NCBI GenBank assembly: GCA_023920165.1 | Contig: CP089276.1 | Span: forward strand, 682,001-746,000 | Direction of reading: 5' to 3' | DNA: 64,000 nt | From: Curvularia clavata | Taxonomy: Eukaryota | In this document: one piece after another, positions 5,646-32,878 of the stretch | Numbering within the stretch: the stretch's first letter is position 1 | Layout: each line of letters begins with the position of its first letter | Made by a program: the position numbers and the translations under genes | The notes under the pieces: generated by a model | Database searches by the model: none | Told to the model about the DNA's origin: nothing | What the model saw: the letters and a program-made list of their open reading frames with translations, nothing else

Positions 5646-6485
5646 TTACAACATAACCAGGCCCGCAACAGCAACAACTACAGCCGCTCCCGCTCCCGCA
5701 ACCTTCGCCGCACCGCCCGTAAACGTTGGCAGCGGCGAACTAGCCGTAGTCGCATTAGGAGATTTGGACGGCGTCGCAGCAGACGACTTTGATGCACTAG
5801 GGACCACAGGGACAACGGGAGTCTCGCTGGGCACACTCTTTGACGAAGCCACGCTCTTTGACGAAGGCGAAGGCACCGCCGGCGACGACGACGCCACCTG
5901 GGTTGCGCTCTCGACGGGCGTGGGCTTCGCTGAGGGGACAACTGCAGATGGGCTAGGGGCAGAGCCGGTTGCTGAAGCGGGGGAGTCGGGGATCAGAGTT
6001 ACGTCTACGCCGAAGGCTTTGGCGCACTCTGCGGCGTTTAGGTTCTCGGGACAGCAGTAGGTTTGGCCTGCGCCGTCGTTTGTGCAGTAGTCGCCTGCGC
6101 CGCAGGAGTCTGGGTTGTGTGGGTTAGTTGTGTGGCTTTGTTTACTCGAGGAGTGAATAACAAGGAAGGAGGAGAGGCAGAGGAGGATTCATGCAAACGT
6201 ACTTCCAGTGCCATCTGTGCAGCAGTGGCTTCCGTCGGTAGTCAGGTGGCAGCTTAGCATCGAGTTATCGTTTGAAGGACACTCTGCCGTGTCAGCGCCG
6301 CAGACCTCGGCACAGGTGTTGCCGTCGCCGTTGCAGAGGGTGCTGATGGGGTAGTAGCCTTGTCGTTTGGACATGGCGTTGCCGCGAGGGAGCATGGCGC
6401 CATAGGAGCGAGGGGTGCTCAGTGTGCCTTGAAGGGCGAGGACTGAGGTGCTCAGGAGAGCGAGAGTAACGAGTGGTGCGTGCAT
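5646..6485 (-). CDS. Secreted, probably GPI-anchored cell-wall protein with a Cys-rich N-terminal domain and Ser/Pro-rich stalk (resembles Prp4/CRoW-type proteins)
   Basis: Signal peptide MHAPLVTLALLSTSVLA, KR site, Cys-rich domain (…HCCTDGTGNSCGAGDYC…YCCPE…C), intron 6110-6202, S/P/T-rich region and hydrophobic tail FTGGAAKVAGAGAAVVVAVAGLVML*. Confidence 0.8.
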
Positions 6486-7547
6486 GGTGATGAAAGGTAG
6501 CGACGGACTACTGTAGAGTGAATGAAGATGCAGAAAGCAGTGGGTTCGAGCTGTCTCTTCTGTGCGAGGTTGGAGCGAGACGAAAGACGAAAGACGTCTC
6601 TTATATCTAGACTCTATTCAGCCCCGCGGGCTCGAAGAAAGATCTCGACTTCCAGGCCGCCTCTTCAGCCTTCAGCCATTTTTTTTTCCTATACCACCGT
6701 ACACCGCATTACCCCATACCTGACCCCATTTCTTGCAACAAGCATCATGACCGGTCCTTTGCTTATCGGTAGCTTAATCTGAATGCAACCAATCCACGAG
6801 CTAGATTCTACAACGCCAACTCTTCTCATTCGCTTATTGACGCCTTTCTTAGAGAAGCATTTACTACGAACTGCAAGGGAGGCAAGGCTGAGTACCTCGC
6901 GGGCCCGTATATCGCTTTCGGCACGCCTTGGCATTTCAGTGATTTCAAGCCTTGCAGGTCTTGGCTCGAGGAGATTGCCCAATCGATGGGGATGGTGGCT
7001 GCCGCCTCCGTTGACTTAAGAGGTGTTGTTCCTGCATGTGGGGAAGAATCCAGAGCTAAATTTGTAAGAGCTGAAGTGTGTTGCTGGCTAGTCGGGGAAT
7101 GTCACTTGGTGCACCTGATTGAATGCATGGCGGGTGGGTCCAGGGTCTGGTGCCTGCATGGACTTAAAGTCTATAGCAGCGGGGTTGCAGGATTTGTTTG
7201 GAGAGGGAGTGTCCTATGCGAGCAAGATGTACAAGGTATGTCGTTTGAACCTCTACAGATCTGCTGCTGACGCATGTCTTGTCGAGATGCTCAGCCGAAC
7301 AGAGTTAACGAGACGAGCAGTATTGGTGTTCTAGCCCCCAACAGCCACATTTCACCATCACACCGCAGCTAGTCCGTCTCTGTGTTAGCGTGCTGGCCGT
7401 AGCGGTCAAGCTGAGCAGCTTTCCATGTGCTGTGGTCCTGCCATTCCGCTGCGCCTCCACTTTTCGCCAGACTATTGATGCGAATGCTGCTTGCGATGCA
7501 CCGTACAGCCCTCAGGAACAACTAAACAGTTGTGCTGGTCGAACCGC

Positions 7548-9653
7548 ATGCCTTTGCCAAAGTGCCTCAGGGGCCCCGTGCGCCGGGCCTCCACGCGCCA
7601 ATCGCAACGGAACAAATGTCGCATGTGTAATCATCTCGATCCGAGAGGCCATACCAGCTCGGTGTATGCGAACGAAGACGTCAAAGAGCCTCGTGCGAGC
7701 CTCAGCCTGGTGCTTGATGCTTTGAGTTTAGCAAAGGTGAAAGAAAGTGGATGTAGATTCTGCCTTGTCTTAGCCCTTGTTCTAGATGCTTTTTTTCCTA
7801 AATGGAGAGGCGCAAGAGTCAGAGTCAATGTCGACATAAAAGAGAAGGGCACAATCAAGGTCACGTTAAGCGGGGAACGTTGGAAGGATGAGATTGCCGA
7901 AATCTACGCCGCCCCAGGTAGGCAACTTTTCCCCGTGGCCAAGTTAGTCCTTTTTTGAAGCAGTGAGCTGGATGGTTTAGCCTCTGGATGAACAAGGAAA
8001 AGGCTATTATGTTCGCACATGGCGTCTATCTAACAACTTGCAGCGTCACGGCCACCATGGCCTACCTTGGGCTCTGCGCATCACATCCCAACCAACTCGG
8101 GATCGGATGACACATTCAACTTCATTCGGCGCTGCATACAAGGTTGCATTGGCAACCCAAAGCACACAGCCTGCAAATTTCCGTGTCCATCCAATTTCGC
8201 GCCTCCTAAGCGTCTTCTCGACGTAGGGAAAAGCTCATCACCTGTTAGACTTGTGGACACGCAAGACAAAAACTTTCAGTATGCTGCGCTTTCGCACTGC
8301 TGGGGATCATCCCCGCCGCTCATTGCAACCAAAGGGAACTGGGCCAAGATGAGCGTCAACATCCCTTTCGATTCTTTTCCTCCTTTATTTCAGGATGCGA
8401 TCATCATTACTCGCCAGCTCGGCTTACGCTATTTATGGGTTGACAGTCTCTGTATCATTCAAGATTCAATCCGAGACTGGGAAACTGAGTCGGCAAAGAT
8501 GGGCAGCATCTACCAGAACAGCTACGTCACGATAGCTGCGACACAGTCAGATAACAGTAGTACAAGATGCCTGGTTGAGAGGCGGAAGCCTGTTAAGATA
8601 TTATACCGCAACACCAGCGGAAAAGAAACCGCACTCAGAGCAAGGAAGATTTTAGATCACCATCCCAGCCACGCGCCGGGTGGAGGTCCTGCAAAACCAG
8701 TCGGTCCACTCACATCACGTGCTTGGGCGCTTCAAGAGCATGTTCTGAGTACGAGGATACTGCACTACACCGCAACAGAACTTTTGTTCGAGTGCAAAAC
8801 ATCATATCGTTGCGAGTGCATGCCAGAACGCAGGTCCTATCCTACAACCCCCGCGTTGATACCGAAAGCCGTTTCAAGCAAGAAAGTAGATGCTGTATGG
8901 CAGGCGTGGCAACGTATCATCGAGCACTATACGGCACGCCAGCTCACAGTGGGCACCGACAAACTCCCTGCGATCTCGGGTATCGCAAACAAAATCAGAA
9001 AAGCAACACACTCGGACTATCTCGCGGGCTTATGGAAATCCAACCTAGCTTCCGATCTGCTATGGCACGTGGACCAGTCAAACCTTCCTCACTCTGATGC
9101 CTTTGCACTAGAAAACTGGCGTGCGCCTTCTTTCTCTTGGGCAAGCTTGAATGCGCCCATCACTTACACGGTGTTAGACGAGGAGGAGCGCGAAATGTTC
9201 CAACCCACCATCGCCATTCTCAACTGCAAGATTACGCCTGTTGGGCTGAACCCGCTAGGTGCCATCTCGAGCGGATCCGTAAAGCTACGTGGCCCAGCTA
9301 TCTCCTGCACATTGTCTGCGAACCGAAATCACGGGGCCTGGGAGTATGATCTTGCGATCAAAGGAACAAGTACCATACGCATGTTACACGACTGCTTACT
9401 CACTGAAGTTGAGTTTGAAAATGATCGAGGAGAAAAACAACGAACAGCTCGTCGCGCACTAGCTTCTGATACCATATGTCGATTTGACACAAAGGCATTG
9501 TGTTTGGGTGTCGCCCGGTACGACAATGTTGTCGCGGGTCTAGTGCTGGGAGTATCGGCTCAACATCATCCAGCATGGGAGCGACTAGGGACTTTCGCAG
9601 CAGGTACCGAGGCAATTGAAAGGAGCAAAGAGATGGAACTAGTTCTTGTTTAA
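7548..9653 (+). CDS. HET-domain (heterokaryon incompatibility, PF06985-type) protein
   Basis: YAALSHCWG, DAIIITRQLGLRYLWVDSLCIIQD, WETESAKMGSIY and RAWALQE motifs; N-terminal CxxC…CxxC exon. Intron 7918-8043 joins it in frame to ORF 8067-9653. Confidence 0.9.
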
Positions 9654-23759: not shown

Positions 23760-26700
23760 CTATAAATTGTCAGAAATCTCTAGCAGCGATACAAGGCCAA
23801 AGTCACGACCTAGCGCAACTATGTCATCGTACACGGCCACACAATTTGCTCTGTATTCAGGCGGAAGCCACAGCACTCGCGAGCCCCGGTAATATACCCA
23901 CTGCTCTGAAACAAAGATTTCAGGTGGGCTTTTCAGCTTCGGCGATAAAGCAGAAAAGGAAAATCCGGTGGAGGCCGACCCGAAGTTAGTGTGCAAAAAG
24001 ACTGGGTTATCAGAGTACAAGAGCCTGCTAAGAGTAGCATCAGCAGAATGCTTCTGTGGCATTTCCCCCATATTTTCATGCCACAGCTTTTCGTCCCAGA
24101 GCTGAACCGTACCCTTCCTTGATGCTATTGCTAGTACCTCACCATCCGACGAGACAGCCGTCGCGTGGCACTCACTTGGAAGGCTCCGAAGTGTCTGCAG
24201 CAAGTCGCCCGTGCTAACGTCCCACAATTCGACTGTCTCGTCCCAAGATATCGATGCTATCATGCTGCCATCGGGCGAAAAGGCCGCTGCCATAACATCT
24301 GATGAAAAGGCCTCTGTCATAACATTTGATGAATGACCACTAAGGGTGACCCGTATTTTGCCTTGGCATATGTCGAATAGCGCTAGATCTCTCTGATCTA
24401 ATCCTATTGCTAGCAAGGCGCCGTTTGGAGAGAAGCCTACTGCAGTGATGCTCCTTGAATGGCTCTTAAAGCATAGTGCCCCCCTACCCTTGCCTAAGTC
24501 CCAAAGCTTGACTTCCCCGTCCCGGGAAGCTGATGCTAGCCATCTACTATCAGGCGAGAAGGCTACTTTCAGAATGACGTCCGAATGGCCCTTGAGCCTC
24601 TGTGGCTTCTTTTTCGTGTCGAAGTTCCATATGCCGATCACGTAGTATCCTGATTCCCAATTCTGTGATGTACACGCCAGCATCGTGCCGTCCGGTGAGA
24701 GAGCCCACCCCAAGACTGGGCTAGAATAGCTCTCGATCATTTCCCGTTCTGACCCTGATGACACATCCCACAGCTTGATCGTTAATAACTTATCTCCAGA
24801 CACCGACGCCAGCACCTTCCCATCAGGCGAAAAGGCCATGGATTTGACTCCACCTAAGTCTTGCTTGGTTGTTTGCACCACTGTTTCTGTACCTGCATCC
24901 CATAGCTTGACTGTCCCACCAGCTGAAATCGATGCTAGCATTTTACCATTTGGCGAGAAGGCTAGTGCTACAACTTCATCTGAGTGGCCCATAAGTGAAT
25001 GCAGCACAGCCGTCTCAGTCTTCCACAATTTGACTGTCTTGGACGATATGAACCCTAGTGACTTTGCGTCGGATGAGAAGACTAGTGTTTCTCTGAAAGG
25101 GGAATAGCCCACACACGTCTGCAGTGGTTCGCCTGTGTGTACTTCCCACAGTCTAAGTGTATTGTCATATGATGCTGATGCCAATACTGTGCCGTCTGGA
25201 GAGAAGATTAATTGCGTGACCCCGCCCCCATTGTCATTAAGGACCTGCAACATCGCGCCAGTGGTTGCATCCCATAACTTGACAGTCCCTTCACGAGACA
25301 CCGACGCTAGGATATTGCCGTTAGGTGACAGTGCCGCTTTTGCTTTTCCATAGCTCTCAACAGTCCGCATCACTTTGCCCGTTTGTACGTTCAGTACGCT
25401 GGCCGTTTTGGAATAAGAGTCAAATACCAACGCGAATGCGGTACCTTCAGGCGAGAATGTCACTGCCCCAGCGCGGTCTGAAGCACACGCGAACGTTCGC
25501 TCTCTTTTGAAAGTACTCAGGTTCCACAGTTCAACCGTCGCAGACTTCACGCTGTTTATCTGATGTGATATGAATGCTAGCATTCTAGAGTCTGGTGAGA
25601 AGGCCACATCGTCAGTCCAGCCGTCCGAGAACGTCCAAAGTAGCTGGCCTGTGTAGACATCCCATAACTTGACCGATTTGTCGTACGATGATGATACCAG
25701 CATCTTGCCATTCGGTGAGAAGCGTATGCCGAATGAATGGTTTTCGAGTGTGTGAAGTATAGCACCCGTATCTACATCCCACAGATTGATATCACTTGAT
25801 GCCGACGCCAGAATCTTACTGTTTGGCGAGAAGGCCACTGTATTGCCAGTAGAAGAGTGTTCTTTGAGTGTCTGTAGTAGCGCGCCCCACCTGCTGTCTA
25901 CTTGGGGTAGCCTCTTTATCCACCCTGGTATCTTGTCTGCGAACTGCTTCTTTACTATGCTTCCACTCGGTGCAAATACCAGCGCGCTGCAGTACACTTG
26001 CAGAGGGGCTTTCTCGATTGCCGCCCGACTGTATAGCGTAAACCGCTTCATGTCACGTACAAATTCACAAATCTCACGACATTCGTTTGTCTATAGTGCT
26101 ATTAGCTATACTCTGTATGGACTACGGATTGGACCTACTCGTGTCATCGACTCCGACAAAGAGCCAATAGCGTGGATACCTTGTGACAGCTTGCCCATCC
26201 AACACAGCGCCTCTAGCCAGTGCAGGAAGTGCTCTTGTAGAAAGCCATGTACTTCATCGCCGTCATGAAGCTTAGCACCGCCTCGTACAAAGTGTTCTAT
26301 CCAGTAGTGACAGGCATATTGCAGCTCGGAGGGGAGAGCTGGCTTGAACTCCGCCCCCTCATCCTCAGTCACCAATGTACAAACTTTATCAATCCCACAA
26401 GCGCCTTGCTGGAGAGAACTAGACATAAGCTGTAGGCATTTAATTGCCAAGTCTCGATGCGCCTCCTGCTCGTCTACCAGAAAGTTGGTATCGCTGCATC
26501 TATCGCCGCTGAGCAGGAAGTCACGGAACGACGGGTGATGCAGACGGAGCAGCTGCGCATTGTCCTTAGGGATGGCGATAATGGCATTGAGACGTTTCAA
26601 AACCCTGCCCGCATACATCTTCTGGAGTCGGAGAACTTTGAAAAGCGCATCAGCTGAAAGAGGAGAAAGCAAGGTGACCATACCTCCTAGTAAAGTTCGT

Positions 26701-27869
26701 AGATCTTTGTAGTACTTTTTCCGTTCTTGTGCACTGTAATTTTCCGGAACAGACGCCTGTAGCACTGTAGTGTAGATGCTGTCGAGGTGCGCTTCAGGAG
26801 AGCTCTTGTGCCTTCCGCCCTCGAGAAGCATGTGTAGTCTTCCGTCAACATCTGTGCCTTCGCAAATGAAGCGAAAGGCAGTAGCAGCCCAGATGAAAAG
26901 ACCGCTTGCTTTCTGGACTAAGCCGTCAATTGCTTTTGCCTTAGGCCAGTCCTCTTCTATGCCCTCTCCCTGGCGATAACACTCAAACTCATGCCTTAGG
27001 AAAAGATCTATGTCCTGATTGACGGCCAGCGGCGGTATGTCGTGCAGTACAACCTCATATGGCACAAACTTATCATTTTCCTGCAAACGGTTGAACTGGG
27101 ATTGGATTGGCGCTTCGGGCCTGCTTGTCAGCAGTATCCGCAACCGGACCTTCGTTAGTGATTTAGCCTCAGCTAACAACCGCACGATGAGGCCGATGTC
27201 CTTCTCATTCTCGCACTCGTCGAGCGCGTCCACAACTAGAACGAGCGAGGCTGGGCAGCTGTCATCGCTCAGCTCCGATAATGGACCGAGGATAAGATGT
27301 CTCCACTGTTTTTCTAGAGAAATGGTGGCAATATCCTTGCTGTTGAGAGCCTTTTTAATAAGCTGTTTCGACGCTTCCACATTGTGCATAAGCTGCACTG
27401 CGAGGCTCGTTGCGAATTTTTTCGCGTAGCGTACATCTTCGCTGCCACCACGCGAGAAGAAAAAGCTGGCCGCTAGACGATTCTTCTCTTCATCGTATTT
27501 GTGCGCGACCGTCCGCGCGATCGTCGATTTGCCTGTCCCTGCTAACCCGCTCAGCCAGAAGATGCACCGATCGTCTTGCCTGTCCGCCCAGTCGTCTATC
27601 TCATTCAGTAGATCAATACGTGTATCTTCGAGACAGCGAGGTTCGTGTTGATGAGCGGACGAGTATATGGGCGCGTCAATAGCATTCCAATTCCTCAGAG
27701 GATCTTGAGATTGTCTGCACTTGTTAAATATGACAACCACTTCTGTGCAGAGCTCCGACGGTACATACTGTATATGCATATCTCCATACCATTCCACTGG
27801 TCCCATTATTCCAATCTTCGAGTCATGGCTGGTGAAGTTATTGGGTTGGCTATGGGCTGGAGAACTCAT
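23760..27869 (-). CDS. NLR-type STAND protein (NWD2/HET-E-like): short N-terminal putative amyloid motif, NACHT domain, ~14 WD40 repeats; about 1335 aa
   Basis: CLEDTR, Walker A WLSGLAGTGKSTIARTVA, Walker B LVLVVDALDEC, TSRPE, GLFIWAAT, HHPSFRDFL, YACHYW, LHWLEAL, PLQVYCSAL and repeated FSPDG…VKLWD units. Exons 27869-27769, 27714-26139 and 26090-23760. Confidence 0.93.
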
Positions 27870-28432
27870 AGCAGGCGTACGAAAGAGTACAATAGCAATT
27901 ACGGGCAGGTGTAAAGAGGCAGATACAGCCCCATTGATGAGAAGAAACTGGTTGTAGCAACCTCTAAATGCAAATAGGATAGAAAGAATGAGATCCATGG
28001 TCCTTCGGAAGGTAGCAAAGGCACCACATTAACCTGACCCCGCAGCTGAAAAGCGCCACGCCGCATCATCAACGTATGTGTATGCATAAGTGACATGATT
28101 TATAAGGCTATAGAGTGGCATCAGCTGCGGATATACTCTCAGCGCTCACCGGTTCCACGTTGGCCTGATCGTTCTACGTCTCCATAAATTATTGGATCAA
28201 TATAGACACCACTAAACATGAAGTCAAATTCTTCGGAAAATTGTGCTGTAAAAGTGATTAAATTCAACGTCTTGCAGATGAGATGCTCAATATTTGCTCG
28301 CATAAGGACTTCTCCACAGATACATTGGCATCCAGTTGTTCAACGGAGCACGTCCTGCATTATTGCTTCACAAACTATTTAGATAGGACTATACTTGAAG
28401 CCAAAACTCAAGACATGGATGTTGGCCAGACG

Positions 28433-29261
28433 TTAAAGGTTAATATTTCCATGCTGGGTTACGTTATGCCCTATGATTCCAACCTTACTGTTGTTTGTAT
28501 GAAATGTGGCACCATGCTTGCTGTCCTTCTAAACAGTCAGTCACAGTCACAGCTACTCCCAGGCTACGTTTACTTACGGCAGCTCCAATAGCCGCAGATA
28601 TGGCCGCCTCCAGCTCCTTGTCCTGTGATCGGACGATCTCTCTTAAGACAGGCAAGCCCTCTTCGCCAATCTCACGGACTTCATCCTCGCAAAGTTTGCG
28701 CTGCTCCTGCTTTACAGCTGGGAGAAAATCTGGGAGGGTGTCGACTAGGTCCTTGATATCTTCAATCAGCCTCTTGAAGTATCTTTCCTCATATAGCGCC
28801 CACTTCGATTTTTGGGCCAGCGTGCTTTTATTCTGACGCTTGATGCATAACTTGCGCATTTTCTCATGTAGCGACTGGCCGACAGAGTCCATATTGGCCT
28901 TCACCTCGAGTGCGGCGAGATCTGGGTCGTCTGCTCGCTTGCGATGCTTGAATTTGGCGGAGCGTTTCTCGACGTCATCGAATAGGTCCAGTATTTGACC
29001 CAGTACTTCCTCAGCCTTTTCTATGTCTTCCTGCTTGACGCCCGCGGCTTCCAGTGATCGAACGTTCTTTAGATCACCACTGAGGCCTACAGATTCACCC
29101 CATCGTGAGAGCCGTAGCCTCGCATGGTCCAGTTTCAGCAGGCTAGTCTGGAAATTGGTGCCAAAGCTGCGGCCAAGCTGGACATACTCGAAGCATTCCA
29201 CAGCGCTGTTGAAGAGGCCTGCAAGCCCTACGATACCGACGGCGACGCCGACCGTTTCCAT
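28433..29261 (-). CDS. HET-S-like HeLo-domain cell-death effector with a C-terminal putative prion-forming/amyloid motif; 259 aa
   Basis: N-terminus METVGVAVGIVGLAGLFNSAVECFEYVQLGRSFGTNFQTSLLKLDHARLRLSRWGESV closely follows HET-S; KWALYE…LIEDI…LVD motif. Intron 28529-28577 (GTAAGT…CTGAC…TTTAG); last exon KDSKHGATFHTNNSKVGIIGHNVTQHGNINL*. Confidence 0.9.
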
Positions 29262-30257
29262 ATCGAAGGTTTTTCTGATTGAACAGAGACGTAAGATGAA
29301 AATTGTCGAGGGCAATAGTCCACACAATATTACCGATTTATTGAGAAGCAAGCTGGTGCGATGCCTAGGAGCTGGGCGCTTGAATGTAGAATAGAGATAA
29401 CAATGTGGCCAAGAAATAATAGGTCCTTTTAATATACTGTGACTATGTGGCGCAGGGCGTCTCAGCTAGGGGGATGATTATCAATTCTGCCTTACGAAGT
29501 GCCTAGACACAGCCCACCTCTGCATCTGCCCTTGGCACGCAAAAGGAATTATCTTGACGAACTCTATAGTCATATCCGCCTACCTAATGGGTTTCCAGAC
29601 GCATGAGGTGATACATAGAGTCTTCATTGTGCAGCTTGGGGTAGCACTGAGAATCTATCGACCTTTCAACGTCAGGAAAGACTCGAACAGTATGAGGAAC
29701 TATAGTTAAACCTTATACATATCAGTAGTGATTGGAGAGCTAGCACATTTCAGCTGTGGCAGATTGAGATGAGATAGATGTCTCAGCTGCATGGCGCTAG
29801 GAGCCTTGGGTGCATCATTATCGGCGCTAAGACGCCCAGTCTAGTCACATGTTTTGCAGCCGCCAGGGTCTAGTAGTGCTGCTTCAGCATCTTGGCTAAC
29901 TATTACGTGCGTGTCACAAGACCTTTTCATCCACTCTCAGTATGGCTGGTATCTGATGTAATTATATTACGTCTGAACTACCTTCGTGGTTGTAGCCTAC
30001 CGCTCAGCTCCAATCCGGTAAAGTCATACAAGTATATCGATGCTGTAACGCAATTACGTCTCTGAACACCAAAACTGGTTTCTGATCTACTCCGATCTTC
30101 CGATGCAATATCGCGGTTTGCTCTTGCTGCTCGCGGGATTAATGGTGGTTTGTTCCAGCGCAGCCGTGATGTATCGTTCCACGAATCTGGCTCTTCAAGT
30201 AGTTTGTAGCTGTATCGCACTGAGCTGAGAGAAACAAGCAGACTTAGCATATGATCA

Positions 30258-30300
30258 ACACACACATACACACACACATATATATGTGTGTGTGTACACG
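30258..30300. repeat. (CA)n/(TA)n/(TG)n compound microsatellite containing a 30-bp perfect palindrome (30267-30296)
   Basis: tacacacacacatatatatgtgtgtgtgta read directly from the sequence. Confidence 0.9.
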
Positions 30301-30490: not shown

Positions 30491-31597
30491 CTAATGGAAG
30501 TAGCTCTTAATCTTGGGCAGAATGTTAATCCAAGCAGCACCAGTGGTAGGCTCCATGCTGTACATGTAGTCACCCCACCAGGGGCCAGCAGCCCACCAAG
30601 CAGCACCCATCCAGACGTCCGAGTTCTTCTTCATGTAGTCAAGACCACCCTGGAGAGCCGTAATACACTGGGCGTTGCTACCAGCGCCGAACTCGCCAAG
30701 GAAACCCTGGAGCTTGTTGTCCTTGAGCCATTGGGTGGCTGCCTGGAGACGTTCCTGGAGAATGGTGCTGCTAACGCAGTCGGCGTGGGTGCCGGACGAG
30801 TCGCTGTCGAGGTACTGGTGCATCTGGAAGACGAGCTTGTTCTGAGGGTCCTTGAGCTTGATCATGCTTGCGGCGTTGCCAGATGAGACCCAGCTCCAGG
30901 CACCGGTCCAGGAATTGCCCTCAGGGGTGATGTATTGCTTGGTGGCGCCAGCAGCGCGGATTCCGTCGATACCGGCTTGATTGAGGCTGACGACAAGATT
31001 TTGATCCATGTCATGGAACTCATTATTGATATCCAGGATAACCAGCTCGTTGTCCTTAAACGGCGTGGCGACAGTAGTCCACCACTTCTTGAAAGCTGCG
31101 GTATCGGTGATGATCTGGCCGTTGAAGCGGCCGTAGTTGTGTGGCTGGATCATAGCATACGCACCCTTGGAGGTGACGTAGTGCACAAGCTCAGTAAGGT
31201 TTCCAGAGTAGTAGGGGTCCAACGAGCCAGTAAGCCCGCTTGGCGTCAGGCGCTCCATCAAGAAGTTGATGCGGAAAAGGTTCATGCCCTGTGCCAGGAA
31301 TTGGTCAACCTGCTTGGTGTCGATCCAGATGTAGTCCTTGTTGTAGAGGCCGGGAAGGTTAGCCTCGCCAAACTCTGGGCCAGACTCGTTGATACCGAAC
31401 CATTTCAGCTTGCCGCTAGCCTGGCTTGCTGAAGAAGAGCCTGCTGCTGCAGCTGCCGCTGGCGCTGAAGAAGAGCTTGCTGCCGCTGGAGCTGGCGTTG
31501 TAGCAGCCTGAGTGGAACCTTTGGGTTGGTTGCGGTGGGGGCAAGCCAAAGCGGTGCCAGCCAGGGCGACCGCAGCGAGAATGTTGTTAAAAAGCAT
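30491..31597 (-). CDS. Secreted GH5 endo-beta-1,4-glucanase (GH5_5-like)
   Basis: Signal peptide, Ala/Ser linker, GINESGPEFG, PHNYGR, catalytic NNEFHDM and LGEFG, HQYLDSD, WAAGPWWGDY. Confidence 0.93.
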   Translation of the reverse strand: MLFNNILAAVALAGTALACPHRNQPKGSTQAATTPAPAAASSSSAPAAAAAAGSSSASQASGKLKWFGINESGPEFGEANLPGLYNKDYIWIDTKQVDQFLAQGMNLFRINFLMERLTPSGLTGSLDPYYSGNLTELVHYVTSKGAYAMIQPHNYGRFNGQIITDTAAFKKWWTTVATPFKDNELVILDINNEFHDMDQNLVVSLNQAGIDGIRAAGATKQYITPEGNSWTGAWSWVSSGNAASMIKLKDPQNKLVFQMHQYLDSDSSGTHADCVSSTILQERLQAATQWLKDNKLQGFLGEFGAGSNAQCITALQGGLDYMKKNSDVWMGAAWWAAGPWWGDYMYSMEPTTGAAWINILPKIKSYFH

Positions 31598-32878
31598 GGT
31601 AAGGAATGAAATAAGCTGTCTTGGAAAAAAGCTTGGGTTGTCGGCGTACCAAGCAAACTGGGGGCGACCAAGGCTTCTTTATACAAAGGACCATCCAACA
31701 TTAAATAACCACATGGACCACATGGCACATCGCCAGCCGGAATCTAGTGTCCCGTCTCCTCAATAGTATACAATCAATTCCGTCGGTGCTAATATGAAAC
31801 TGGCGCATAGAGAATGGGGTACGCGGTGTTCTGGAGCCGGGATCCAGATTGCATTACCCAAAGCTGCCTCGCTTCGCTCTGATCGGGTAGGGATATGGGT
31901 CATGTGTCGTGCCGCGGACGAAGCAACAGATTGCCATTCGTGGAAGCGGTGGAAACGTGAGGACACGCACGTGTGAAACAATGCGCCATCTGTAAATGCC
32001 GTCAGAGTGTGTGCCGTAATTTCGGGGCTGGCCATGAAACGTTGGACTGGGCATGGATACTCCACGAGGACTAACGTTTTAAACACATGTCACTCGCTGA
32101 TCATAGGCCAAACCCCGTTAGCAAGATTGCCCGTAGATTAATCCTTCTGCGTCCTTACTGTTTTAGTACTAGTGTCATATTTGCCGGTGGGTTTTGACCT
32201 GGGGAACGCTGTCACAGAGGCGATGATGAGAAAGGAAAGGCGCGGGAACGCTAAGCATCAGGAACCGGAAAGTTTAAATTGCTTGACACTTATTATGCAT
32301 TTAGCTTGCTGGACCAGAGCGTAATGTCCACCAAACAAAATTTGTTGACCGCGGTATGAATAGGTTCGTGGTTTTATGAAGGGTTAGGCCTACGTATGCT
32401 TATGCCAGATCGCAGAGCTGTCTCTTCTTACTCAAAACTAGCAGCCGGTCACGTTTTCAGTGTTGCAAATACCTGGTATTGTTAGCAGACCTTGGTTGTA
32501 AAGAGGAGGTGCCTGGGCCTCATGTCGCACAAACAACGACCTCAATCTCGTTCACAGCACCACGTTTTTTGTGGGTAGCCGATCGAACCGGTAGTAACGC
32601 CGGCCCACGCTCTCGGTGCAAATTGTCAGTGCGAACCGTCTGGAAACCCCCCGATACCTGTGGCCTGGAACCGGTCTTGAGTGATCATATGTAGACGAAC
32701 AGGGGCCACCAATCCTGGGCTGTCAGAATGATGTCACTTCATGTGTCCTTCATGTACTTCTTCTACGCAAACATGCAATTGAATTGTGATTATTGCCATT
32801 GAACGCCTACTATGAACATTTCGTCCGATGCAAACCCTGAGCGACTGATATCCAGGACTTCCGCTTGCTGAAAGCTCG

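Follow-up and report, generated by a model that had tools for sequence, protein, structure and literature searches.

Do two neighbouring genes of Curvularia clavata, one for a HeLo-domain effector and one for a NOD-like receptor (NLR), share a genuine signalling motif, and if so, to which family does it belong? This question is raised by a stretch of 64,000 nucleotides (assembly GCA_023920165.1, contig CP089276.1, positions 682,001 to 746,000 of the forward strand), which is referred to as the window in the following. Amyloid signalling from fungal NLRs to their effectors is a model of prion-like transduction, alongside the RHIM of necroptosis and the BASS motifs of bacteria, and four motif families have been validated for it so far. 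An earlier, sequence-only reading of the window proposed that the C-terminal tail of the HeLo protein and the N-terminus of the NLR carry a common motif that is unlike the canonical fungal ones and possibly new or rarely described. We find this motif in both window proteins as well as in a family of relatives, and we interpret the pair, with a probability of roughly 0.7, as a two-gene NLR/HeLo cell-death module that is most likely amyloid-templating and whose motif represents a divergent form of the published NLR39 type.

The effector gene encodes a true HeLo domain, as had been supposed (PF14479, E 1.8e-51, residues 5-199 of the 228 encoded by its first exon). The NLR gene starts about 560 bp downstream of the HeLo tail on the same strand, and its open reading frame (ORF) begins MSSPAHSQPNNFTSHDSKIGIMGPVEWYGDMHIQ. 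Pfam domains in its product are NPHP3_N (E 9.6e-30), NACHT (E 1.1e-8) and WD40 (E 1.2e-78, in 10 stretches). The Walker A region lies at about residue 87 or beyond in the spliced protein, which therefore has a short N-terminus (< 150 amino acids). Both peptides agree at each residue with the consensus proposed earlier, F-x3-[ND]-S-K-[VI]-G-I-[IM]-G-x(1-2)-V-x2-[HY]-G-[ND]-[IM]-x-[LI], and a BLASTP alignment of the tail with the NLR N-terminus showed 8/23 identical and 18/23 positive residues with one gap (E 3e-4 for this single comparison).

To go beyond a pairwise match, a family profile was built from 53 non-identical sequences (33 effector-side and 20 NLR-side, including XP_018036993.1 and P0144), none of which came from the window. 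This profile scored 20.3 bits on the tail and 20.9 bits on a 34-residue NLR peptide, and composition-preserving shuffles scored as high in 1/10,000 and 0/10,000 cases, respectively. Of all 1958 ORFs in the six frames of the window, those of the tail and the NLR took ranks one and two (E 3.7e-5 and 0.012); the third-ranked ORF reached 7.3 bits (E 0.44), and the scan with the family profile found no third copy of the motif in the 64 kb. The motif is single-copy, as expected from the earlier reading, with one per window protein and exactly one in 24/24 motif-bearing homologous effectors.

These homologous effectors were obtained with the HeLo exon, which retrieved 206 proteins at E ≤ 1e-5; the tails of the best 120 of these 206 and of 12 cluster members were compared (132 tails). 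A single-copy tail of the form TFNNYNSKI[GA]xQ[AV][GA]xxx[IV][HY]G[GN]QT[FI]x[FL] was present in 24/132 and a PP tail in 39/132. Neither pattern occurred in 69/132, many of them because the gene models end at the intron and skip the tail exon. The window tail is bridged to the family by P0002, the closest relative (74% identical in its HeLo domain), whose tail is ATFHNHNSKIGAQGSNVTINGGMSF. Most of the named family records are from Pleosporales. The N-termini of the neighbouring NLRs read F[TN]N[DE]GGR[IV][AG]IQAGxYxV[HY]GDxIVQ and can be aligned with the effector tails almost without gaps. Adjacency was established for four pairs in named genomes, for three of them via consecutive accessions and for the fourth (P0028/P0144) via the neighbour table of the survey cited below together with matching organism, length and contig. 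In a metagenome scan of 80 loci, the family motif was detected in 19, and 8 of the 80 (7 distinct) combined a motif-bearing HeLo tail with a divergently transcribed NLR that bears the motif as well; PP motifs on both sides were seen at 3/80 loci and mixed pairs at none. Overall, homologous motifs in NLR/effector pairs were found at no fewer than 12 loci besides the window.

The motif is rich in N, Q and G, with alternating hydrophobic residues and one invariant G. The consensus of the two sides differs systematically (NSKI..HGGQ in effectors vs GGRI..YGD in NLRs), and an NLR-side profile gives a median of 19.8 bits on effector tails compared to 64.2 bits on its own side. A library-wide search with the family profile yielded 16 matches at E ≤ 1e-3, nine of which are single-stretch family members (P0030 and eight others); the remaining seven are multi-stretch and presumably low-complexity repeats, judged without sight of their sequences. 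With its 31 positions, however, the profile is too short for a census of the family among 1.8 billion proteins.

The tail types were also compared with the phylogeny of the HeLo domain. In a quick tree of 60 HeLo rows (maximum likelihood), from which 58 rows without a visible tail were excluded, the window falls into a clade of 12 rows that all have this tail type (Shimodaira-Hasegawa-like approximate likelihood ratio support 99). The tail type requires 2 changes on the tree, which was equalled by 0/500 label shuffles. Sister HeLo proteins with 50-60% identity have PP tails that are equal in length and position. As a side observation, P0064 from Coniosporium apollinis has a family-type tail, though its HeLo domain groups with the PP clade. 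The two tail types also differ in gene structure: family tails nearly always form a small ORF of their own 50-70 nt past the HeLo ORF (L003-L014, L021, L022 and L034), whereas PP tails were continuous with the HeLo ORF at 7/7 loci (L016-L020, L042 and L069). On two contigs of about 1.1 kb (L001 and L002), the family tail is already joined to the HeLo domain, as in spliced transcripts.

Comparing our results to the published record, we found that the family has been catalogued. Wojciechowski et al. 2022 (PLoS Comput Biol 18:e1010787; PMC9815663) report 16 motifs from short NLR N-termini. Table 1 of that paper lists NLR39 with a length of 24, 20 NLRs, the annotation 'PP', 0 neighbour hits, 2 effectors and 1 co-occurring pair. 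According to its S1 Table, OAK94516.1, ORY18351.1 and PSN61266.1 carry NLR39 at positions 9-32 or 12-35, and these are the neighbours of our HeLo homologues P0028, P0056 and P0030; OAK94516.1 corresponds to P0144 in organism, length and contig. The 12 NLR39 rows listed from S1 Table belong to Dothideomycetes, Eurotiomycetes and Leotiomycetes. The S6 Table contains one NLR39 pair, XP_018036993.1/XP_018036994.1 from Paraphaeosphaeria sporulosa with a HeLo-type effector (PMC9815663). This pair is identical to P0164/P0061, and the HeLo domain of its effector is 56% identical to that of the window. The neighbour-pair tables S3 and S5 (PMC9815663) contain none of the effector accessions that were looked up, and a full-text literature search with motif strings and 'NLR39' traced the fungal motif to no publication other than the 2022 paper and its preprint. 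A 2025 methods paper names five fungal families in the part available, namely HRAM, sigma, PP and PUASM 1-2.

Of the earlier suggestion of a new or rarely described motif, the second half thus holds and the first does not, given the NLR39 neighbours, the pair P0164/P0061 and the match to the 53-sequence profile. The NLR39-type family is catalogued yet essentially undescribed, and its effector side is new information. By its sequence, the window pair, which is expressed, is placed as a divergent member. Two features explain why the survey missed the effectors: their tail is usually a separate mini-exon skipped by gene callers, and on such tails a profile of the NLR side reaches no more than about 20 bits.

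Within the family, the window pair is divergent in a coordinated way. Its NLR has an effector-like 'DSKIG' where other family NLRs have 'GGR[IV][GA]', its NLR motif is one residue shorter ahead of the invariant G, and its tail stops two residues early. An effector-type motif (...HGGQHxHF) at the NLR N-terminus was also seen in P0264 and in the NLR of L024 (825-1010, minus strand); both resemble the effector-like 'DSKIG' of the window, which is consistent with homogenisation between partners. The window tail has a BLOSUM score of 40 against its own NLR and of 6-17 against four other family NLRs. Across 13 pairs, the summed own-partner score was modestly higher than for shuffled partners (371 vs a mean of 319.9, with 371 reached by 2,824/100,000 shuffles). 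At the column of the central Q, 9 of these pairs were Q/Q, 2 non-Q/non-Q and 2 mixed. These Q counts give a hint, short of proof, that the cores of partners are matched.

The other Q-less pair is found at metagenome locus L004, which harbours two adjacent pairs: a HeLo/NLR pair with Q on both sides and a SIR2/NLR pair with Q on neither (5808-7062, minus strand, and 7396-8666, plus strand). Here, a SIR2_2-domain protein (E 4e-19) is followed by a canonical in-frame intron of 55 nt (GTACGT...TAG) and a mini-exon encoding the family-type tail GSGTATFHNHNSKIGVGATTMTVNGGQTINL; its partner is a second NACHT NLR whose N-terminus has the matching Q-less motif. This arrangement suggests that the motif may also serve an enzymatic effector. 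The motif was present in 0/120 predicted SIR2 homologue proteins, and most of the 40 tails viewed end at a likely unspliced intron ('...SGV'); the SIR2 association consequently comes from a single locus.

In the window, each of the two genes has an intact reading frame and yields correctly spliced transcripts. The locus is matched without any difference by contigs of public runs from two organisms. A contig joint from 28524 to 28577, which removes 52 nt with minus-strand GT..AG borders, was seen in three of four runs (X1, X3 and X10), and in the fourth (X9) no contig spans the HeLo intron. The HeLo contigs of X1 and X3 cover 28243..29347 or 29371, and the one from X3 ends in adapter; intron-free contigs that are confined to gene bodies, one of them with an adapter end, are as expected of cDNA. 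The transcripts show a separate tail exon and correct the tail length given in the sequence-only reading. The in-frame translation of 28433..28528 (minus strand) is KDSKHGATFHTNNSKVGIIGHNVTQHGNINL followed by a stop codon, 31 residues, but the expressed tail begins at 28525 and has 30 (DSKHG...), in agreement with the C. clavata gene model ('GAADSKHG'). A start at 28528 would imply an intron of 49 nt instead of the 52 nt seen, so that the gene model changes by one codon and the motif is untouched. The acceptor (28524..28530, minus strand) is a tandem NAGNAG, tttAG|AAG|GAC, of which the distal AG alone is used in contigs of three runs, which are blind to rare isoforms. The proximal AG, if used, would insert one lysine into the tail.

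On the NLR side, the junction MHIQ|QSQDP directly behind the motif is also present in the C. clavata model P0134, and a second intron is predicted near 26091-26108. Among named relatives, a C. clavata protein of 96% identity comes closest to the NLR. The model P0134 (yc1106_03964, 1571 aa) merges the HeLo and NLR genes of 23763..29261 (minus strand) by splicing the NLR N-terminus ('THSQPNNF...') onto a site inside the effector tail ('...ATFHTNN'). This fusion looks like an annotation artefact because the contigs are separate for each gene and none is bridging, though uncovered stretches prove nothing: contigs are absent over 28012..28242, and this gap is uninformative on joint versus separate transcripts. 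We further observed that close NACHT-WD40 relatives with about 50% identity bear other heads, namely HRAM-like (...GAKAQLGNxYHI) or PP motifs or entire HET, SIR2, PNP_UDP or HeLo-like domains (P0153, P0160, P0171, P0173, P0187, P0192, P0210, P0213, P0216, P0238 and P0252), so one NOD-WD40 chassis is joined to many signalling heads.

In the mechanism we propose, the WD40 repeats of the NLR would sense a cue, and oligomerisation driven by the NACHT domain would gather the N-terminal motifs. The gathered motifs may then nucleate a cross-beta fold that templates the homologous single motif at the HeLo C-terminus, and folding of this tail would free the membrane-inserting N-terminal helix of the HeLo domain and lead to cell death. 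Amyloid formation, templating and HeLo activation are put forward by analogy with NWD2/HET-S and PNT1/HELLP, which operate by NLR-to-effector templating according to the accounts consulted (PMC4518210, PMC7885112).

How does this motif relate to the established families? The claim that it is unlike HRAM/HET-s, PP and sigma was borne out: no Pfam family (including HET-s_218-289 and Ses_B) and no NCBIfam model matches either window peptide at E ≤ 10, our own PP and HRAM-like profiles stay at or below 2.3 bits, and the family signatures are absent. The supposed echo of the HET-s strand SRVLIG in SKVGIIG found no support in the profiles. An HRAM-like NLR N-terminus profile (11 sequences picked by our own regular expression and not matched to published lists) scored 0.6 and 2.3 bits, and PF11558 (HET-s) gave no match. 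The HRAM rule, given in PMC4518210 as G19, hydrophobic residues at 5, 8, 10, 16 and 18 and R/K at 15, does not fit either, since threading by eye on the conserved G puts V at position 15, and positions 16/18 become T/H in the effector and E/Y in the NLR. The PUASM pattern FxGxGxQxxGxGxF is missing from both window peptides in a regular-expression search, and the effector is a HeLo protein. Profile-profile alignments (hhalign) of the family with PP (P 0.034), with PF17046-type tails (P 0.085) and with the HRAM-like set (P 0.12) were too weak to decide on remote homology in either direction.

The closest contender, implied by the 'PP' label of NLR39, is a plain PP/RHIM-family motif with the same origin and serpentine fold. 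That label was given because of a G-hydrophobic-Q-hydrophobic-G pattern, the sole reason stated in the passages on NLR39 (PMC9815663). The looser form GxQxG indeed occurs in 8/20 NLR-side and 6/33 effector-side family sequences, the motif is single-copy like PP and, at L004, also sits on a non-pore-forming SIR2 effector, and the sister HeLo proteins have true PP tails (PF17046). Nevertheless, we consider this reading doubtful. The strict core is restricted to 5/20 NLR-side and 0/33 effector-side sequences, and N.G.Q.G.N was found by regular expression in 0/33 and 0/20; neither window peptide has either pattern. PF17046, the PP model according to a figure legend of the BASS preprint, detected five control PP peptides with 14.1-39.3 bits (14.1 and 14.9 for two NLR07/PP N-termini, 25.6 and 26.1 for two other N-termini, 39.3 for a sister HeLo tail) but was silent at E ≤ 10 on both window peptides and three further family peptides. 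A profile of 39 PF17046-type tails gave 0.5 bits or nothing on the window peptides, and one of six PP NLR N-termini (two of them published NLR07) gave 1.1 and -0.4 bits. Furthermore, hhalign left the Q columns of the family and of PP out of register at its P of 0.034, compared to P 1.7e-4 between the NLR and effector sides of PP, and the alignments show a core-to-conserved-G spacing that is two residues longer. Tentatively, the NSKI...HGxQ / GGRI...YGD motif may instead represent a separate, sixth fungal amyloid signalling family and not a PP variant. If so, this family would combine a systematically different consensus in receptor and effector with an effector copy that is a portable mini-exon of about 30 codons behind a phase-0 intron, placed on at least two effector types (HeLo and the SIR2-like enzyme at L004). 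The Q-less pairs of the window and of L004 would then imply that the RHIM-like central Q is dispensable and the fold unlike RIP1-RIP3.

Several observations weigh against the proposed templating module. The window peptides are weak members: a first profile of 23 sequences gave them 10.3 and 6.1 bits, below the 13.4 and 8.9 bits reached by shuffles, and membership became clear only after metagenome relatives had joined the profile. The Q that is present in 27/33 effector and 19/19 NLR sequences of the family is I in the window tail and M in the window NLR, and its covariation across the 13 pairs is modest (one-sided Fisher about 0.08, a hand calculation on non-independent pairs). An identity-based partner shuffle of these pairs was not significant (16,287/100,000), the RNA nature of the runs is a guess only (label 'RNA? 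(a guess)'), and the Exp. column for NLR39 in Table 1 of PMC9815663 shows '-', i.e., no experiment. One might therefore suspect a decaying relic whose signalling was inactivated by loss of Q on both sides, since Q is the best-conserved polar position of the family and the window peptides score about 20 bits vs 39-63 for typical members. This seems very improbable to us, given that the two reading frames are uninterrupted and their transcripts correctly spliced, that the C. clavata protein of 96% identity has exactly the same NLR motif, and that the partners changed in parallel and are still most alike to each other; moreover, L004 has another Q-less pair, and four effector tails likewise have I at the Q column, with Q one position before. 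Alternatively, the shared motif might mediate a specific non-amyloid contact between NLR and effector, such as one-to-one beta-strand pairing, or some other regulation. The amyloid role of the NLR39-type family is indeed argued by analogy, and the systematic asymmetry of the two consensus sequences would be tolerable in heterotypic recognition. Still, we regard such a contact as improbable, because the architecture is that of every validated fungal or bacterial amyloid signalling motif covered in PMC4518210 and PMC9815663, in which neighbouring genes encode an NLR that starts with a short motif at its very N-terminus and a HeLo effector that carries the motif at its very C-terminus. The composition of the motif with its alternating hydrophobic residues and invariant G points the same way, as does column AC+ of Table 1 in PMC9815663, by which a share of 0.80 of the NLR39 instances reaches or exceeds the ArchCandy cut-off. 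Finally, a chance resemblance of two low-complexity peptides could be invoked for so short a motif with merely 8/23 identities, but it is effectively refuted by the two top ranks for a profile containing neither peptide and by the shuffles, and the same pairing at the further loci speaks against it.

The features of the window are compiled in the following table, together with the surroundings of the locus. The cellulase gene, about 1.2 kb from the HeLo gene, is unrelated to the motif finding.

Table 1. Features of the gene pair and its surroundings, in window positions (position 1 is the first letter of the 64,000-nucleotide stretch).
Feature	Position	Strand	Details
NACHT-WD40 NLR gene	23763..27869	-	ATG at 27869; NACHT ORF 26109..27869; WD40 ORF 23763..26090
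NLR-gene intron, 54 nt	27715..27768	-	directly after the motif; joint 27714->27769, GT..AG, in a 5135-nt contig of X3
NLR-side motif, residues 12-34	27769..27836	-	FTSHDSKIGIMGPVEWYGDMHIQ; last codon finished across the intron
HeLo-tail transcript as assembled	28243..29371	-	contigs of 1053 nt (X1) and 1102 nt (X3), intron removed
Tail mini-exon	28433..28525	-	30 aa, DSKHGATFHTNNSKVGIIGHNVTQHGNINL, plus stop codon; contigs and translation
Effector-side motif, single copy, C-terminal	28436..28504	-	FHTNNSKVGIIGHNVTQHGNINL, 23 aa; family-profile match
HeLo-gene intron, 52 nt	28526..28577	-	GTAAGT...CTGAC...AAG, tandem NAGNAG acceptor; spliced contigs
HeLo effector gene, exon 1	28578..29261	-	228 codons, ATG at 29261; contigs of X1, X3, X9 and X10
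(CA)n/(TG)n/(TA)n microsatellite	30255..30300		between the HeLo and cellulase genes
Glycoside hydrolase family 5 cellulase gene	30494..31600	-	secreted-looking; PF00150, E 6.3e-60
Long ORF, 558 aa	32882..34555	-	S/P/Q-rich; no Pfam match at E ≤ 0.001

This locus is valuable as a way into a signalling motif that is still uncharacterised, and not as a new kind of system. NLR39, formerly a computational footnote of 20 sequences, gains HeLo partners and one SIR2 partner. The pairs of the window and of L004 provide natural variants without the supposedly key Q, and an expressed pair allows an offshoot of PP to be tested against an independent fold, as well as how much divergence between receptor and effector is tolerated.

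Among the known systems, HET-S/NWD2 and the HRAM1-5 families share with the window a HeLo effector beside a NACHT-WD40 NLR, a motif placed C-terminally in the effector and N-terminally in the NLR, and a presumed logic of templating. HRAM effectors, however, have two pseudo-repeats of 21 aa separated by a loop of 6-18 aa, whereas the window effector has one copy in a 30-aa tail. Sigma (Nectria haematococca ses locus) and PUASM are likewise NLR-associated, single-copy fungal motifs. Sigma measures about 40 aa according to PMC5485727, compared to 23 aa for the window motif, a comparison made with Pfam models alone, and PUASM is limited to PNP_UDP effectors. PP (HELLP/PNT1 of Podospora anserina and Chaetomium globosum, with RHIM and BASS3 as kin) is similar in its single copy per partner, neighbouring genes, length of about 20-25 residues, richness in N, Q and G, and occurrence on HeLo-type as well as enzymatic effectors, and part of the NLR39-type family has a GxQxG-like core. 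In contrast to PP, the pseudo-palindrome N-x-G-x-Q-x-G-x-N is lacking, and the window pair does without any central Q. The closest agreement is with NLR39 itself, where published positions of 8-31, 9-32 and 12-35 in short-N-terminus NACHT-WD NLRs compare to 12-34 in the window NLR, and where 0 neighbour hits and 2 effectors in the survey now stand against 24 effector proteins and 19/80 metagenome loci.

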